DNA of 31,406 nucleotides, the filler included, from Candidatus Woesearchaeota archaeon (lineage in GTDB: Archaea > Nanobdellota > Nanobdellia > Woesearchaeales > WJIZ01), in the NCBI GenBank assembly GCA_018221205.1. It is 2 parts of 2 records of this genome, joined end to end, with 100 filler letters (N's around TTAATTAATTAA, not from the genome) between each part and the next. Parts side by side here need not be neighbours in the genome. Positions count along the whole stretch, not along the records: positions 17,109 to 31,406 come from JAAOYF010000026.1; 1 more part is not named here. One strand, 5' to 3'. Shown one piece after another: positions 2,455 to 31,404 of the stretch. A model generated the notes under the pieces. It was not told the origin of the DNA and did no database searches. It saw only the letters and a program-made list of their open reading frames with translations. Made by a program: the position numbers and the translations under genes. Each line of letters begins with the position of its first letter. Position 1 is the stretch's first letter.

Positions 2455-2561
2455 AAACTCACCCAGATTTATATGAGCTAGGACCTTTATATAGTTTTCG
2501 TTGGTTTATATAAACAGTTTTTACCATAATCTTTAAAAGACTAAGGCTATATCTTGCTGGT

Positions 2562-4211
2562 ATGTCAGAGAGTATGCATTGGGCTGATCGGATAGCGCAG
2601 CTGGTTAAAGAAAGAGTTGAGAAAGATAAGCTTCTTCAGGCTGTTGTGAAGGAGAAAGGATATATCTGTTATGATGAAAAGACGCCTTCTGGAAATATCC
2701 ATGTGGGCTCTGGAAGGGGGTGGGTCATCTTTGACTGCGTAGCCAAAGCACTGCGCAAGATCGGCCTGAAAGGACGATTCATCCTGAGTTCTGATGATAT
2801 GGATCCTTTTGACAAGCCAAGCAAGGAATTAGGAGAGGAATGGAATAAATATTTAGGAATGCCGTTCAGGGATATGCCTTCTCCTCAAAAGGGCTATAAG
2901 AACTATGCTGATTATTATTTCTCTCGGGTAACAGAGAAGTTTCCTGAATGGGGTATAGAGGCTGAATTGCAAAGCACTGGAGAGCGGTATATCGATGGGA
3001 GTTTTAATCCTCAGATCAAGAAGATCCTTGATAATGCAGACAAAGTCAAGCAGATCTATATGGACCTGTATGGAGAGGATACCCCTGCTGCCAAAAAACT
3101 GCCTTTCAATGTCAAATGCCCTCAATGCGGGAAGATAGCCACCACTATTGCGACAGAATGGAACAAAGAGAAAGAAGAGATCTATTTCGAATGCAAAGAA
3201 AATGTTGTTAAATTTGCTCAAGGTTGCGGTCATAAAGGATGGATATCTCCCTACAATGGCAATGGGAAGTTTCCATGGAAAGTGGAATGGCCTGCGAAAT
3301 GGCCTATGATGGGTGTTGTCTATGAGATCGCAGGCAAGGATCATTTCACCAAAGGAGGGGCACGTACGATAGCAAATAAGATTGCAGTCGATGTCTTGGG
3401 CTATCCTCCTCCTGTGCCTTCTGACGGCTATAAGACTGGAAAAGGGTATGAGTTTTTTACTGTAGGCGGCGCTAAAATGAGCACTTCTAAAGGAACAGGC
3501 ATGTCATTCAGAGGAATATCGGAATATGCGCCTGCGAAGATGCTCAGGTATCTTATTGTCAAATCTCGTGTCCATGCTGTCCTTGACTTTGATCCATACA
3601 ATGATAATGATCTTTTATTACTTTATGATCGATATGACAAGACTGAAAAGGATTATTTTGAAGGGAAAGATGAATTGCAGAAAAGGGTGTATGAATTGAG
3701 CCATGTGGGTAAGATTCCTACATCATGTCCTCCACACATCCCCTTGAATACTGCTGCTTTTACGATCCAGATTGCTTTATTTGATGTTGATAAGGCGCTT
3801 GATATCCTGAAAGGCCTTGATATGGTGGACAAAGAAGCCTCTAAGGAGGATATTGAGGCCATCAAAGAAAGACTTGAATTTGCTCGACGGTGGGTGAAGG
3901 ATTTTGCTTCTGATCAGTATAAGTTCGAAGTTGCTACAAAAGTCAGTGAGGATGTCAAAAAAAGTCTTTCTGAGAAGCAGAAAGAGGCCCTTACACTTCT
4001 GAAAGTGAAGCTTTCTGCCAAAGATTATGGGCAGAAGGAATTATATGAAGAATTCTATAAGATAAAGGAAGAGACCAATGTTGAGATCAAGGATTTCTTT
4101 GAAGCTGCTTATTTAATCATCATCAACAAGAAAAGAGGGCCTAAACTGGCTGGTTTTATTCTTTCTCTAGGTAAAGAGAAAGTCATTGATTTATTGAATC
4201 AGGCTGTATAG
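2562..4211 (+). CDS. lysS: lysyl-tRNA synthetase, class I (archaeal type)
   Basis: N-terminal HWAD, TPSGNIHVG (HIGH-like), CxxC zinc motifs, WKVEWPAKW, GKDH, KMSTSKG and C-terminal GPKLA. Confidence 0.96.
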   Translation: MSESMHWADRIAQLVKERVEKDKLLQAVVKEKGYICYDEKTPSGNIHVGSGRGWVIFDCVAKALRKIGLKGRFILSSDDMDPFDKPSKELGEEWNKYLGMPFRDMPSPQKGYKNYADYYFSRVTEKFPEWGIEAELQSTGERYIDGSFNPQIKKILDNADKVKQIYMDLYGEDTPAAKKLPFNVKCPQCGKIATTIATEWNKEKEEIYFECKENVVKFAQGCGHKGWISPYNGNGKFPWKVEWPAKWPMMGVVYEIAGKDHFTKGGARTIANKIAVDVLGYPPPVPSDGYKTGKGYEFFTVGGAKMSTSKGTGMSFRGISEYAPAKMLRYLIVKSRVHAVLDFDPYNDNDLLLLYDRYDKTEKDYFEGKDELQKRVYELSHVGKIPTSCPPHIPLNTAAFTIQIALFDVDKALDILKGLDMVDKEASKEDIEAIKERLEFARRWVKDFASDQYKFEVATKVSEDVKKSLSEKQKEALTLLKVKLSAKDYGQKELYEEFYKIKEETNVEIKDFFEAAYLIIINKKRGPKLAGFILSLGKEKVIDLLNQAV

Positions 4212-16786: not shown

Positions 16787-16948
16787 ATATATTCTATTAT
16801 CTTTATTTTTATAAATCAAATGGGCTTTCATGATAAAATGACACACATCAAAGCTTCTAGCGGAACTTTTACCCTACAATCACCGGGTACCCATAGAATC
16901 AGGTATGGTCCAGGAAAGTCAATATCAATACTTGGACCTAATTTTAAT

Positions 16949-16994
16949 GCGAGCGTAGCGAGCACAGGGGTTTAATTCCCCGACCTTTAGGTCG
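16949..16994. repeat. GC-rich palindromic element at the contig end (REP-like or IS200/IS605-end-like)
   Basis: GCGAGCGTAGCGAGC followed by GGGGTTTAATTCCCC and the hairpin CGACC-TTTA-GGTCG, about 15 bp from the assembly break. Confidence 0.5.
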
Positions 16995-17008
16995 ACTTCT
17001 TAGAAATA

Positions 17009-26241: not shown

Positions 26242-28103
26242 CCGACAAAGATCGGCCTTCTGCTTAATTCTTTAGGCAGTGCCAGTGGATAGAACGGCAT
26301 GTCTTTTGTTTCCTTCTTGACATGATCCATCAAGCTTTTGACATCCATCTCAACGAGATCTTTCTGTCCTCGGATTCTGACTGGAAGCTTGCCTGATGCC
26401 TTCTCTTTCTCACCAATGACGACGATGAGAGATGCCCATTCCCTCTCAGCTTCTCTTATCTTTTTGCCGACATGCAATGTCCGATCATCAAGATCAGCTC
26501 GGATACTGTTCTTCTTCAACTCATCAACAAGCTGATTAGCATCTTGAGTAAAACTCTCTGAGACAGGAATGACTCTCACTTGGACAGGGCTCAACCACAT
26601 CGGAAGCTTACCCACTTTGCCTGCTTTCTGATCAAAGGCTGCTTTCTCGAGCAGCGCATACATCACTCTTTCGATGGCACCAGAAGGGCTGCAATGCAGC
26701 ACCAGAGGATGCTTCTGCTTGCTATCCTTATCAGTGAACTTCATATCATATCTTTCGCCATTCTCGATATCGATCTGGTCTGTGCTCAAAGCAGATGCCT
26801 TGTCAAGCGTGTCGACAAAATTGAATTCATATTTCAAGATAAAATAGAATATCCGTTCATCCCACATCTCTAAAAGAATGGGCTTGTTTAATTTCTTCAC
26901 CAATCCAAAGATAAAATCTTTATTCTTCTCGAAGAAATCCTTCGTTGTTCGAAGTGCCATCTCGACATCTTCATCTCCTAGTCCCATATTATTCAGGACG
27001 CTTAAGCAGAGGTCAAATCTGATCTTGAACTCATCCATGGCTTGGTTGATGTCCGCGACCAGAGCATGGCAATCAGGCATGGTGAATGCACGCAACCTTC
27101 GCAACCCTGTCAGCTCTCCGCTCTGTTCTCTCCGGAAAGAATATCGTGTCATTTCATAGAGCTTAAGGGGAAGGTCCTTATAGCTGATTGTCGCATCATG
27201 CGCAATCAGGAACTGGCCGAAGCAGGCAGCAAATCTCAAGAAGAATTTCCTCTTATCAGAATCGATCTGATATTGCCGTGCAGGAAACCGCTGAAGATAT
27301 TTTGATAATGATGGGTGATTCATATCATACATGATCGGAGTTTCCACTTCCACTCCCCCATATTCAATAACTCGCTTATTGACATACTCCTCGATCAGCT
27401 TCTTCACCAACCGTCCCTTAGGATAATAACGCATGTTGCCGCCATCAGAAGCAGGTTCATAATCGACCAATTCAAGTTTCCTCATGAATTTGACATGGGG
27501 GGGCTCTTGATCTACAGCTCGTTTCTTATCTTTCTCATAAAACGCAAATTTCTTCAGTTTTGGATGGTTGGAATAATCAAATTTATCCACTTCATGGAGC
27601 TCGCCTTCTGGAGTCAGGATGTGCCAATAGCTTGTAAGCTTCCGCTCTTTCTTCAAAGAATCAGTCTCATCATCTTTTTTCGCATCTCCAGGGCCAAACT
27701 CTCTGCTCAGCTCTGCTAAGGGATGGCCTTTGACGCTGATATTGAAGGATTTATACCATCCAAAGGGACTGCGATGGACAGCATAGTCATTCTTCAGCTC
27801 TTTTTCCATGCCATCAAGCACTTGAAGTGCAGTATCCGGCTTGGAAGGAGTATTCGTCAGATGGACATAAGGATAAAGCACGATGGTCTTCTCTTTCACT
27901 TGGTCAGCGATATCTTTCACATGGCCGATGGCTTGCTTGATGATATCTTTTGGATTAGCTTCATCTCTCTCCTCGACAGAGAGAAACACCACTAAGCAAT
28001 TCTCGACCTTCTCTTTCTTGTTTTTCAGTTCCTCGGGTTGTTTGATAGCTTTCTTCTTCGCCTCGAACTCAATAAAGTCAGAGTGGAGTGCTAATAGTTT
28101 CAT
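26238..28103 (-). CDS. thrS: threonyl-tRNA synthetase, archaeal type with N-terminal editing domain
   Basis: LYPYVHL and RSPFGWYKSF...KGHPLAELSR (archaeal editing domain), LRFAACFGQF, FRREQSGE, FTMPDCH, LHCSPSGAIER and an anticodon-binding domain. Confidence 0.97.
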   Translation of the reverse strand: MKLLALHSDFIEFEAKKKAIKQPEELKNKKEKVENCLVVFLSVEERDEANPKDIIKQAIGHVKDIADQVKEKTIVLYPYVHLTNTPSKPDTALQVLDGMEKELKNDYAVHRSPFGWYKSFNISVKGHPLAELSREFGPGDAKKDDETDSLKKERKLTSYWHILTPEGELHEVDKFDYSNHPKLKKFAFYEKDKKRAVDQEPPHVKFMRKLELVDYEPASDGGNMRYYPKGRLVKKLIEEYVNKRVIEYGGVEVETPIMYDMNHPSLSKYLQRFPARQYQIDSDKRKFFLRFAACFGQFLIAHDATISYKDLPLKLYEMTRYSFRREQSGELTGLRRLRAFTMPDCHALVADINQAMDEFKIRFDLCLSVLNNMGLGDEDVEMALRTTKDFFEKNKDFIFGLVKKLNKPILLEMWDERIFYFILKYEFNFVDTLDKASALSTDQIDIENGERYDMKFTDKDSKQKHPLVLHCSPSGAIERVMYALLEKAAFDQKAGKVGKLPMWLSPVQVRVIPVSESFTQDANQLVDELKKNSIRADLDDRTLHVGKKIREAEREWASLIVVIGEKEKASGKLPVRIRGQKDLVEMDVKSLMDHVKKETKDMPFYPLALPKELSRRPIFVG

Positions 28104-28240
28104 CTTCTATCACTTCCTTTGCGAACGAAGTGAGCGCGTGGTGCTTTAGCACCACTATTTTCGTTAACGTTTTTAATTTCGCTTGCGAAATTCAAAAGGT
28201 TAAACTCGATGAAATCTGAATGCAACGCTAAGAGTTTCAT
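28100..28240 (-). other. duplicated, synonymously re-coded thrS 5' end (13 codons) plus a palindromic insert, forming a 46-codon upstream ORF coupled to thrS
   Basis: ATG AAA CTC TTA GCG TTG CAT TCA GAT TTC ATC GAG TTT (28240-28202) and thrS ATG AAA CTA TTA GCA CTC CAC TCT GAC TTT ATT GAG TTC both encode MKLLALHSDFIEF. The upstream frame ends at TGA 28102-28100, overlapping the thrS ATG. Confidence 0.9.
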
Positions 28241-29248: not shown

Positions 29249-29884
29249 TTAGATCTTTCTTGCTATAGAATTGATAAGCTTGTTTTCAGCCTTAAGTAAA
29301 TGTTCTCCCGCAGTAGCAGGGCTTAATTTCATTGCTTTGGCAATTCTTAATATGGTAACCTTCCTTGGTTGAGAATAATAACCCTTATCATAGGCATACT
29401 TGAAAATCTTCTTTTGCTGTTGAGATAGCAATGAGTGCTCGAATCCAACTTCACCTATGTACAATACTTTCAGCAAACCCATCTTCTTAGCTTCAACGAT
29501 TATTTTATCGATTGATTGCCTATCTACCACCCCGATATGCCAATATTCATAGCCATGAGATACTGTATGCAAGTCAATAAAGAAACCATGGTATTTCTGG
29601 ATTACATTCTGGATGTAGCCTTTCTGGGAAATGACGACTAAGAGAAGCAGGGTTTCAGTGCTCCTCTCAATTTCCTCTACTAGCTTAAATCCTTTGGCTT
29701 TATGTAGATAGGAGACTACCTCATCAAATTTTCGTGGATTCCCGGTAATGTAATAGAAATACTGCTTTTCTTTTGGGTGGGTTGATTGAATATCAACAAC
29801 TGTTATATGGTGCTTTGGGAATTTTATGCTTAAACCAGTCTCAGCACAATTTCTATGCCGGACTTTAAAGCTAAGTTTATACAT
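29249..29884 (-). CDS. Bat-like (HTH_10) archaeal transcriptional regulator
   Basis: C-terminal LSQQQKKIFKYAYDKGYYSQPRKVTILRIAKAMKLSPATAGEHLLKAENKL, typical of bacterio-opsin activator-type HTH domains. Confidence 0.88.
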   Translation of the reverse strand: MYKLSFKVRHRNCAETGLSIKFPKHHITVVDIQSTHPKEKQYFYYITGNPRKFDEVVSYLHKAKGFKLVEEIERSTETLLLLVVISQKGYIQNVIQKYHGFFIDLHTVSHGYEYWHIGVVDRQSIDKIIVEAKKMGLLKVLYIGEVGFEHSLLSQQQKKIFKYAYDKGYYSQPRKVTILRIAKAMKLSPATAGEHLLKAENKLINSIARKI

Positions 29885-29932
29885 AAGACAGCAAAACAGA
29901 GCAGGATATAAAAAGGTTAAGAAAAAAAAGAA

Positions 29933-29949
29933 TGGGCCCGCGGAGATTT
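29933..29949 (-). repeat. displaced variant copy of the tRNA-Ile 3' end (T-loop end, T-stem, acceptor strand, discriminator)
   Basis: TGGGCCCGCGGAGATTT versus TGGGCCCGGTGAGATTT at 30815-30831 (15/17 identical), followed on the minus strand by TTCTTTTTTTT. Confidence 0.8.
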
Positions 29950-30119
29950 TCCGGCAAAAGCATAATCTGACTTAAGAACACTAGACATTTTCTCTGTGCG
30001 TAGGGTATATAAATCAAAAAAAGCCATTTCAATCACATAGGAGATATTCAACTCTCAAATCATGATTTCAGAAAAATCATTTACAGAGTTTCATTGTATT
30101 TAGCAAATGGTGATTAAAA

Positions 30120-30833
30120 ATGATATTTGATTTAACGTCAATTAATTTCAGTAGTTCAGACAGAAAGAAGGGGCTGGCTTTGCCGAGAAAAATGAGCATA
30201 GATTTAGCTGAAGAAATTGGGATTCATATCGGCGATGGAAGTATGAACATCTATTCCAAAAAAGGATTCTATCAGCTTCGTGGCCATATCCATGATGACA
30301 AACCTCATTACTTGAGAAGAATTTCAGAATTATACAAAAAACTGTATAATATCGATGTAAACATTCGAAATATGCCTTCAACAGGAGTAATTGGATTTCA
30401 AGTATGGAGTGATGCGCTCGTTGAATTCAAAAGCAGTATCCTAAAGCTTCCACTAGGCAAAAAAACGGACATCAGAATTCCTAAAGTGATTGATAGCAAA
30501 AAGTTATTTTTTGCATTTATGCGTGGATTATTCGATACAGATGGATGTTTATATCTAGAGAAAAGGAACTATGTATATTATCCACGAGTAGAGATCAGAA
30601 TGGCTTCTGAATCATTACGGAACCATATCATTACCCTATCACAGAAATATGGGTTGCCTATAAAGCATTTTAGATTCAAAAGAAAAGAAAAAAACTGGGA
30701 GGACATATGTACCTTACGATTAAATGGTTTACCAAGTCTCAAGATATGGAATAATCTTATCGGAACAAATAACCCAAAACACCAAAGAAAAATGCGTTTA
30801 TTGAGTAAAAAAGGTGGGCCCGGTGAGATTTGA
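30120..30833 (+). CDS. free-standing two-motif LAGLIDADG (DOD-type) homing endonuclease
   Basis: LAEEIGIHIGDG and FMRGLFDTDG motifs with its own GGTGAT RBS and no intein splicing motifs. The 3' end overlaps tRNA-Ile in antisense. Confidence 0.9.
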   Translation: MIFDLTSINFSSSDRKKGLALPRKMSIDLAEEIGIHIGDGSMNIYSKKGFYQLRGHIHDDKPHYLRRISELYKKLYNIDVNIRNMPSTGVIGFQVWSDALVEFKSSILKLPLGKKTDIRIPKVIDSKKLFFAFMRGLFDTDGCLYLEKRNYVYYPRVEIRMASESLRNHIITLSQKYGLPIKHFRFKRKEKNWEDICTLRLNGLPSLKIWNNLIGTNNPKHQRKMRLLSKKGGPGEI

Positions 30834-30907
30834 ACTCACGACCTCACGATATCAGCGCAACTCTGGCATATCAGTCGTGCGCAATAGCCAGGCTATGCTA
30901 CGGGCCC
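30815..30907 (-). tRNA. tRNA-Ile(GAU) with an 18-nt intron at 37/38 (intron 30851-30868)
   Basis: Acceptor GGGCCCG/CGGGCCC+A, anticodon stem CACGA/TCGTG, loop CT-GAT-A^A and T-arm GTGAG-TTCAAAT-CTCAC. Confidence 0.92.
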
Positions 30908-30988
30908 ATGATAAAAAGGGGGACTGAGGAGCTTTGCTCCGAACGTCGCCCGCTTTTTACGAGATTTTTTGCAAAAATCTCCCATCGA

Positions 30989-31092
30989 CGCCCCCTCCCA
31001 GATTTGAACTGGGGACCTTGTGATGACTGTAGCGGATATAACAGTTTCGTAGGTTTAAACCACACACGCTCTAACCGCTAAGCTAAGGGGGC
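30989..31092 (-). tRNA. tRNA-Asn(GUU) with two introns: 17 nt at 30/31 (31046-31062) and 14 nt at 37/38 (31025-31038)
   Basis: Acceptor GCCCCCT/AGGGGGC+G, spliced anticodon arm TGTGA-CTGTTAA-TCACA and T-arm CCCAG-TTCAAAT-CTGGG. Both introns form BHB motifs, giving a 73-nt mature body. Confidence 0.9.
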
Positions 31093-31119: not shown

Positions 31120-31404
31120 TTATAAACGTTTCGAATAAATATTCTGAACCTTTACCAAATGTTTCGGATTATTCATTCCAATGAGTTTCATCCATAAATC
31201 AAGATTTGTAAATCCGGGAATTTCTAGCCTAAAATGTATTGCTTTTCGAGAAACGGAACCGTAGAAGCCCAAACCTCTTAGCCTTTGTATGATTCCAACT
31301 AGGAAAGTCCGCGATTTGCTAGCTATCTCTAATCTTGGATAGTAAGGATTCTCTCTATGTTGCCTACTTAGTACGACACAACCATCAGTATCAAATAACC
31401 CCCT
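31120..31404 (-). CDS. second LAGLIDADG homing endonuclease, C-terminal part (5' end outside the window)
   Basis: Hand-translated as RGLFDTDGCVVLSRQHRENPYYPRLEI...LWMKLIGMNNPKHLVKVQNIYSKRL*. It shares RGLFDTDGC, YYPR.EI and W..LIG.NNPKH with 30120-30833. Confidence 0.88.
   Translation of the reverse strand, partial: RGLFDTDGCVVLSRQHRENPYYPRLEIASKSRTFLVGIIQRLRGLGFYGSVSRKAIHFRLEIPGFTNLDLWMKLIGMNNPKHLVKVQNIYSKRL

Follow-up and report, generated by a model that had tools for sequence, protein, structure and literature searches.

We describe a LAGLIDADG endonuclease gene that stands against the tRNA-Ile(GAU) gene of a Candidatus Woesearchaeota archaeon (assembly GCA_018221205.1; archaeal, 1.28 Mb). 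The window, namely the whole stretch of 31,406 nucleotides that was analysed, joins two parts of this genome, and the locus lies at positions 29,933 to 30,907, in the part that comes from JAAOYF010000026.1. It consists of an intact LAGLIDADG cassette docked on tRNA-Ile, with the displaced 3' end of another tRNA-Ile allele (referred to below as the orphan) at its far side. The features are as follows:

30815..30907, minus strand: resident tRNA-Ile(GAU) gene (Rfam), anticodon at 30870-30872, T-stem GTGAG/CTCAC
30851..30868, minus strand: 18-nt intron at 37/38 of tRNA-Ile, likely an immunity element, central splice helix imperfect
30860..30886, minus strand: putative target region (3' strand of the D-stem plus anticodon arm), about positions 22-46 of the uninterrupted allele, here split by the intron
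30120..30833, plus strand: free-standing two-motif LAGLIDADG endonuclease gene, 237 aa, retains D39 and D141, final codons run antisense to the tRNA 3' end
30006..30013, plus strand: TATA box of the nuclease gene, predicted from sequence; its spacing from the box in the next line is the same in paralogues and homologues
29979..29987, plus strand: conserved box CACT(G/A)GACA (CACTGGACA box) upstream of the nuclease promoter, likely an operator
29933..29951, minus strand: orphan 3' end of another tRNA-Ile allele, positions 60-73 at 29933-29946, preceded by GAAAA
29922..29929, minus strand: oligo-T tract behind the orphan, terminator-like in sequence

The tRNA-Ile gene scores 55.8 bits with Rfam and carries its 18-nt insert after position 37. 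When the insert is taken out, the remaining sequence folds into a tRNA-Ile cloverleaf; its D-stem has a single mismatch, and in its T-stem GTGAG and CTCAC pair perfectly. A preliminary description of the locus had pointed out this matching GTGAG strand as well as the oligo-T tract behind the orphan, and both are present as described; the 37/38 intron did not figure in it. ARAGORN in its default mode missed both tRNA genes of the window and mislabels intron-bearing ones, and anticodons were taken by script and by eye.

The nuclease open reading frame (ORF) matches the Pfam family LAGLIDADG_3 (PF14528) with an E-value of 6e-6. It converges on tRNA-Ile and overlaps its last 19 nt, and its C-terminus GGPGEI* is, as previously noted, the antisense of the tRNA 3' end, the stop codon being the antisense of the T-loop. 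The gene is situated outside any intron or intein. It had been described as inserted in the T-arm; the overlap with the tRNA 3' end holds, whereas the insertion does not, because the gene stands behind a complete tRNA. The AlphaFold model of the protein has a pLDDT of 91.6, and the closest folds found by Foldseek are the TliVMA intein endonuclease, I-Tsp061I and PI-PfuI (E-values of 1e-10 to 7qsu and 3e-10 to I-Tsp061I), with WhiA also among the fold matches; identity to solved LAGLIDADG enzymes is 13-22%. The acidic residue that ends each LAGLIDADG motif is catalytic. Among Ile-adjacent proteins (n=107), D39 is conserved in 103, D141 in 106 and K115 in 107, and the two motif-end acids are invariant in all 23 members of a smaller homologue set. 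With fold and acids intact, the protein is likely a site-specific homing endonuclease. Pfam detects no integrase or intein domain in this ORF, which is the only one longer than 100 aa in the interval, and Rfam detects no further RNA family and no ribozyme match in the cassette interval; the tRNA and the LAGLIDADG ORF were all that the two databases returned, in agreement with the earlier statement that integrase, self-splicing intron and intein are absent.

The orphan 17-mer (29933-29949) and the tRNA end at 30815-30831 lie 882 bp apart and share 15 of 17 nucleotides. Both mismatches fall in the T-stem, just as had been reported, and none of 100 shuffles gave a pair as good. Together with the Rfam and Pfam assignments, this shuffle test confirms that the nuclease is placed between the functional tRNA-Ile 3' end and an orphan copy of it. 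Across the assembly the best partner of the orphan is this same tRNA-Ile (two mismatches), followed by a tRNA on contig C63 (three mismatches). An exact match to a different tRNA gene was looked for and is not found among the assembled tRNAs (the assembly is 95% complete), and derivation of the orphan from another tRNA was ruled out, as no assembled tRNA fits better than tRNA-Ile. In relatives, four loci that lack an Ile-clade nuclease (L322, L323, L354 and L366) have intact tRNA-Ile genes with exactly this 17-mer at the 3' end, which supports the proposal that the orphan represents a different tRNA-Ile allele. L366 matches the orphan exactly over 21 nt, including an intron/3'-exon junction, and the intron-free L322 over 20 nt. 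The L366 allele has an uninterrupted CACGA/TCGTG arm and a CGGAG stem, and its upstream tRNA-Asn is adjoined by a homologue of the second nuclease of the window. A sequencing run (X1) that may be the source sample contains identical pieces over 29800-29937 and 30157-30934; none of them bridges the orphan and none shows an empty allele.

Orphans recur at other loci. By a fixed rule they were found at 7 of 28 convergent loci and at none of 70 upstream-type controls, and two more (L015, L099) were recognised by eye; in several loci the orphan starts near the T-loop, and in L018, L099 and L106 it is identical to the resident 3' end. Two loci (L011, L016) have a nuclease gene with a tRNA-Ile 3' fragment only, no whole tRNA-Ile being called nearby. 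The preliminary description also expected empty alleles to share the flank of the orphan, and no such shared flank was found: the helix-turn-helix flank gene stands beside none of the fetched tRNA-Ile loci, and in the one relative with the same flank genes (G002) these follow tRNA-Gly. In that genome (L369, ~2130-2373), tRNA-Gly(CCC) has behind it two degenerate repeats of its own 3' end, and no nuclease gene separates them.

A search returned 452 homologues, and homologue labels point to Woesearchaeota and other Nanoarchaeia; a contig scan with the single protein gave nothing, and one with an alignment was successful. Of 190 loci retrieved, one belonged to an unpublished genome and was set aside; 155 unique loci with a stop codon were retained. 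Presence of the nuclease is patchy: it is found in 2 of 7 genomes of the family and, above 290 bits, in 9 of 401 genomes of the order. In a second order, chosen around a genome with the label Pacearchaeota, 8 of 131 genomes exceed 235 bits and one further copy is cut by a contig end. By script, tRNA-Ile was recognised beside the nuclease gene in 108 of the 155 unique loci, where the gene is 1) upstream on the same strand (83 loci), 2) convergent (23 loci) or 3) downstream (2 loci). The 83 upstream members, the majority, replace no 3' end, which speaks against the earlier idea of resistance through a replaced 3' end. The remaining 47 loci comprise other clades and at least nine Ile loci missed by the script (L010, L060, L087, L088, L092, L095, L099, L110, L114). 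The script also anchored on a wrong CTGATA in L001, L021 and L106, where the class "intron" is still correct; a BLAST search with a tRNA query returned mostly other tRNAs, and the control parse of tRNA-Asn yielded six genes only.

In a tree of 157 proteins (quick search), the Ile-adjacent genes fall in a clade of 122 rows with a Shimodaira-Hasegawa-like approximate likelihood ratio (SH-aLRT) support of 93, and genes adjacent to tRNAs for Thr, Asn, His, Arg and initiator Met (iMet) group apart from it. The partner is thus fixed while the position of the gene is free, four arrangements being known, which suggests that the target lies within the tRNA, in the portion that makes it tRNA-Ile. This assembly alone holds at least seven such nuclease genes, each against a tRNA. 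Four are convergent with the 3' ends of tRNA genes (Ile, initiator Met, elongator Met and Arg(TCT)), and the others stand before Asn and two other tRNAs. An orphan 3' end accompanies three of the four convergent genes, and an upstream gene on contig C39 has an orphan 5' end. In the iMet clade, protein search found five genes, and all of them adjoin initiator tRNAs whose T-arm has an intron; 7 of 75 published rows are of this type. In a fetch blind to the neighbourhood, the gene was present at 2 of 5 alleles of this type; the single allele with another intron and all 14 intron-free alleles lacked it (p = 0.06 for 2 of 5 versus 0 of 14). Consequently, different nuclease clades appear to be tied to different tRNA arms. 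One Ile-clade member is itself intron-encoded: in L110 and L114 it occupies a 691-nt intron at 30/31 of tRNA-Ile with a 10-bp closing stem, and the ends of this intron resemble those of the short introns found at the same place. The short tRNA-Ile introns at 30/31-31/32 may be shrunken descendants of such nuclease-containing introns. The L110/L114 gene (~2459-3226, oriented) has flanks with a GC content of 0.46-0.48 and an intron GC content of 0.39, which suggests another host lineage. In upstream-type loci such as L123, L127 and L147, the nuclease stop codon falls within the TATA box of the tRNA (CTTATAA), so that deletion of the gene end would remove the tRNA promoter.

A strong comparative signal comes from the tRNA-Ile alleles themselves. 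The arm CGACTGATAATCG, the commonest uninterrupted one in the order, occurs in 124 of its 401 genomes (119 without the five unpublished genomes G117, G277, G306, G337 and G371). Among the 108 nuclease-adjacent alleles, 75 have introns, mostly at 30/31-31/32 or 37/38, 32 have variant arms, and a single one has uninterrupted CGACTGATAATCG; within the stem type to which this arm belongs, the counts are 1 of 31 nuclease-adjacent alleles versus 119 of 387 (p = 0.0003). The commonest Pacearchaeales-type arm, AGAGCRCTRCTCTGATAAGGYAG, is found in 32 of 131 genomes and in none of 189 nuclease loci, and its 5' half stands beside the nuclease in 24 of 45 intron-bearing versus 0 of 32 intron-free alleles (p = 1e-7). 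None of the nine Ile loci missed by the script holds either uninterrupted consensus. The 32 intron-free variant alleles represent 25 different sequences. In the second order, intron-free alleles with the gene (28) and without it (73) differ at positions 10, 11, 22, 24, 25, 28, 42 and 44-46, each with p < 0.01, whereas positions 49-65 do not differ between the two groups. The excess variants span ~25 bp centred on the anticodon, which fits the usual size of a LAGLIDADG site. By a hand count in the same order, 7 of the 9 genomes with the nuclease have intron-bearing alleles, as do 23 of the 96 without it.

We consider it probable that the enzyme homes as a free-standing endonuclease by cutting tRNA-Ile genes in their uninterrupted D-stem/anticodon arm, that alleles become immune through either a protein-spliced intron or substitutions, and that the orphan is a scar of the recipient. 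The resident allele of the window is likely protected by its 37/38 intron, and its T-stem difference from the orphan is probably a passenger of co-conversion. Of the earlier proposal of a cassette that replaces the tRNA 3' end with a cleavage-resistant version, the likely homing cassette is retained and resistance by way of the T-stem is given up. The mechanism would operate when two alleles meet in one cell. The enzyme would break the uninterrupted allele near the anticodon, and repair would copy the intron, T-arm, 3' end and nuclease gene of the donor. Since the T-arm would be copied as a whole, both T-stem strands would be of the donor type; in the window both are of the non-orphan type, which speaks for a break further upstream. 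The copied tract would rejoin the recipient near the T-loop, leaving its last 14-19 nt as the orphan, which may then act as a short homology arm in later rounds. The simplest account of the orphan is a recipient of the L366 type whose tRNA would have been overwritten from the anticodon arm on. Intron-free alleles would persist beside the gene only if substitutions in the D-stem, anticodon stem or variable loop spoil the site. The comparison of alleles suggests that tRNA-docked enzymes cut uninterrupted copies of tRNA-Ile and likely spread tRNA introns and tRNA sequence variants. The wider proposition is that LAGLIDADG drives have radiated on the chromosomes of Nanoarchaeia, each clade being specific for one tRNA and one arm of it, and that these drives switch between free-standing and intron-encoded forms, spread and fix small protein-spliced introns at particular positions and force compensatory changes into otherwise conserved tRNA stems; we judge its chances to be evenly balanced.

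Several observations weigh against the anticodon-arm interpretation. The splice helix of the 18-nt intron is imperfect, as are those of several relatives; that the intron is removed in vivo is an assumption. The genome is rich in introns, 18 of the 25 tRNAs found exceeding canonical length, so that the intron of the window tRNA-Ile proves nothing on its own. The genome-level test taken alone is weak (0 of 9 versus 119 of 387, p = 0.06), and kin genomes and co-inherited cassettes are not independent, which means that the p-values overstate the evidence; the target windows were, moreover, picked after seeing the data. Only 7 of 30 intron-bearing Pacearchaeales alleles now have the gene (hand count), so that gene loss after spread is required. 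Orphans are a minority of convergent loci, the intron-encoded pair L110 and L114 counts as one event, and the viral contigs searched contained no relative of the nuclease and thus no viral carrier. L089 keeps the uninterrupted 13-mer, its gene standing before tRNA-Asn. Finally, at L335 an uninterrupted tRNA-Ile, with ACGTG/CACGT as its T-stem, has an unrelated LAGLIDADG gene converging on it. The L335 protein scores 27 bits on the clade profile, where the clade minimum is 158, its T-stem is unique among 45 controls, and it could be a true T-arm-targeting case. Other LAGLIDADG genes occur in 5 of 47 control loci; four are tRNA-Asn-linked or cut by the fetch and the fifth is L335.

In the model of the preliminary description, CGGAG/CTCCG alleles would be cut in their T-arm or 3' end, and the cassette would bring in the resistant GTGAG/CTCAC stem. 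This has the attraction that the orphan and resident ends differ in the T-stem only, that orphan-type alleles occur without the gene, and that orphans in several loci start near the T-loop. The GTGAG/CTCAC stem is, as that model predicts, seen only beside nucleases (the window, L088 and L004/L094) and in 0 of 45 nuclease-free control alleles (45 parsed out of 48 given). The iMet clade is apparently tied to the T-arm, L335 pairs a distant nuclease with an odd T-stem, and specificity could vary among members. However, the CGGAG/CTCCG stem, expected to be absent beside the nuclease, stands there in 9 of 31 alleles, among them those of the close homologues L002 and L085, compared with 13 of 45 alleles without the gene (p = 1), which leaves the T-stem unsupported as the source of resistance. 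The orphans that equal the resident end (L018, L099, L106) and the uniformity of positions 49-65 in 28 versus 73 alleles speak against it as well; a T-arm target leaves fidelity to one anticodon unexplained, and replacement of the 3' end alone would not bring the matching GTGAG 5' strand. We therefore regard cutting at the T-stem as unlikely.

The GAAAA that precedes position 60 of the orphan resembles the end of a tRNA intron at 59/60, and such introns do exist in 7 of 47 control alleles (six ending in TGAANN, one in AGAAAA). This raises the idea that the gene once resided in a 59/60 intron, of which the orphan would be the 3' exon, and that a new 3' end was restored later. The orphans of L006, L018 and L099 lie in the same context, and L110/L114 demonstrate that a clade member can reside in a tRNA intron. 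A giant intron reaching from 59/60 to the orphan is ruled out in the window, since a tRNA spliced from the present 5' exon to the orphan would lose 2 of its 5 T-stem pairs, so that no working intron exists now; in L099 it is ruled out by the presence of a separate 3' exon. None of the loci that were inspected visually has the gene within a 59/60 intron. The intron reading of the orphan context is only suggestive, because intron-free L322 fits the region almost equally well (20 versus 21 nt), and a short 59/60 intron in the recipient, compatible with cleavage in the anticodon arm, explains the context equally. An intron relic is, on balance, rather improbable.

Still less probable is that a trans-acting site-specific recombinase inserted the cassette at the T-loop, with the orphan as an attachment (att) site and the nuclease as cargo or a domesticated DNA-binding protein. 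PMC3293823 describes a displaced fragment of the tRNA 3' end as typical of tRNA-integrated elements; the boundaries cluster at the T-loop, the promoter box follows close behind the orphan in several loci, and WhiA is among the fold matches. Against this, the interval contains no integrase, the repeat is imperfect and missing at most loci, the gene also occurs upstream of, downstream of and inside the tRNA, the catalytic acids are kept, and the avoidance of the uninterrupted arm is unexplained. Least probable of all is a lineage effect in which nucleases and tRNA introns accumulate in the same element-rich lineages with the vicinity of tRNAs as a safe site and no mechanism linking them, an idea that draws on the seven or more such genes and the mostly intron-bearing tRNAs of this genome, the weak genome-level test and the many intron alleles without the gene, but accounts neither for the 32 intron-free variant alleles (25 sequences), which go beyond intron richness, nor for the fidelity of clade to tRNA, nor for the intron-free tRNA-Asn neighbours in L003, L010, L020, L095 and L102 (by ARAGORN lengths).

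The box CACT(G/A)GACA upstream of the nuclease promoter is present in 36 of 140 loci and 15 of 23 convergent loci, compared with 2% in shuffles. In this genome it lies 17-22 nt 5' of the TATA box at five nuclease genes and also at a few host promoters (copies at C19:12441, C25:26689, C48:94, C52:10264 and C65:53369). One of the host copies is palindromic and precedes a putative exonuclease gene, and others are near ParA-like and small DNA-binding-like ORFs; the box may be a host operator that the nucleases share. Some nuclease genes of several clades have a conserved leader of ~140 nt at their 5' side, consisting of a long interrupted stem followed by a hairpin that covers the ribosome-binding site (RBS); copies are at C38:9478-9621, C39:2738-2881 and C63:39335-39458, and in L015, L068, L072, L074, L107, L179 and L188. 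A structured leader RNA in the window was considered and rejected: the hairpin at 30020-30125 shows no folding advantage over shuffles (z -1.3), and the window leader, at best degenerate, is not recovered by a leader profile from which it had been left out.

Next to tRNA-Ile, the end of the window holds two further genes:

30989..31092, minus strand: tRNA-Asn(GUU) with two introns, neighbour of tRNA-Ile, read from sequence (the ARAGORN label Leu is wrong)
31120..31404, minus strand: second LAGLIDADG gene, C-terminal part only, oriented towards tRNA-Asn and continuing on contig C38

Between the two tRNA genes, positions 30918-30981 form a 64-nt hairpin-rich repeat (folding z -4.3), with near-identical copies beside tRNAs on C64 and C12, weaker copies on C45, C28 and C1, and a related sequence within a tRNA on C63. 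Elsewhere in the window, the first 38 nt of thrS are duplicated 137 nt upstream (28066-28240; 76% identity), with a hairpin and no nuclease gene between the copies; this is possibly the "thrS case" that the preliminary description took as its analogue. At 16942-17008, a repeat of 65-67 nt at the end of contig C73 is found again at the ends of about ten other contigs and therefore probably breaks the assembly.

Direct evidence tying disrupted tRNA genes to mobile elements is stated to be lacking in the relevant passages of PMC3293823, and the locus bears on the spread of small archaeal tRNA introns and on their odd positions. The clade offers a named enzyme, a predicted site of ~22-25 bp and natural alleles that are expected to be sensitive or resistant. 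If the proposed mechanism is true, selfish nucleases shape the sequence of tRNA genes itself, gene exchange in these reduced archaea is frequent enough to sustain homing, and the 452 homologues represent hundreds of compact meganucleases with predictable targets.

In the open full-text literature, outside of which lie most subscription papers and supplements, no paper on free-standing LAGLIDADG genes at archaeal tRNAs was found. In fungal mitochondria, free-standing endonuclease cassettes replace the 3' end of a gene and displace the old one; PMC7202290 and PMC8393795 yielded nothing on displaced gene ends. The window cassette is similar in having a replacement 3' end before the nuclease gene and the displaced fragment behind it; it differs from those cassettes, which sit at organelle protein genes, in that the displaced piece is 14-19 nt of a tRNA and apparently not the recognised sequence. 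The LAGLIDADG enzymes of archaeal bulge-helix-bulge introns and inteins (I-Tsp061I, I-DmoI, PI-PfuI, TliVMA) are the closest solved folds and sequences, and L110/L114 share their intron-encoded lifestyle, whereas the window copy is outside any intron or intein and its host gene is a tRNA rather than an rRNA or protein gene. Intron-encoded homing enzymes cut near their insertion site, as passages in PMC6083498 and PMC2988022 describe.

The Randau-Soll idea, as outlined in PMC3293823, is that tRNA introns block tRNA-integrated elements. Going by that outline, our locus resembles such elements in the tRNA fragment at its far end, an imperfect repeat that matches at 15 of 17 nt and has counterparts in only 7 of 28 convergent loci, and resembles the idea itself in that introns would protect tRNA genes; it differs in that there is no integrase and the pressure would come from the nuclease travelling with the intron. 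The Seg and Mob enzymes of phage T4 practise intronless homing, and SegB lies in a tRNA cluster with a tRNA intergenic region listed as its target (PMC2988022). Resemblances to the enzymes portrayed there are the optional free-standing gene near its putative cleavage site, inheritance by co-conversion (proposed here), host promoters in the nuclease ORF (many upstream-type members here end on the tRNA TATA box) and RBS-sequestering hairpins in some leaders; the T4 enzymes, in the sections of that source concerned with them, are phage GIY-YIG or HNH proteins, the SegB target is not a tRNA arm, and a displaced tRNA end does not appear. F-CphI, which adjoins the intron-containing psbA gene of cyanophage S-PM2, is an example of collaborative homing, where the intron is proposed to block self-cleavage and to travel along (PMC6083498, in its passages on this system). 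Measured against this system, our locus has no group I partner, having an 18-nt tRNA intron with no ribozyme match, and 32 of the 108 alleles are intron-free. As far as those passages describe F-CphI, both systems have a free-standing nuclease gene beside an intron-bearing target gene, with intron-free alleles in relatives; the present one differs in its LAGLIDADG enzyme, its archaeal chromosome, its tRNA target, its short protein-spliced introns in place of a group I ribozyme, and what would be a second route to immunity, by substitutions.

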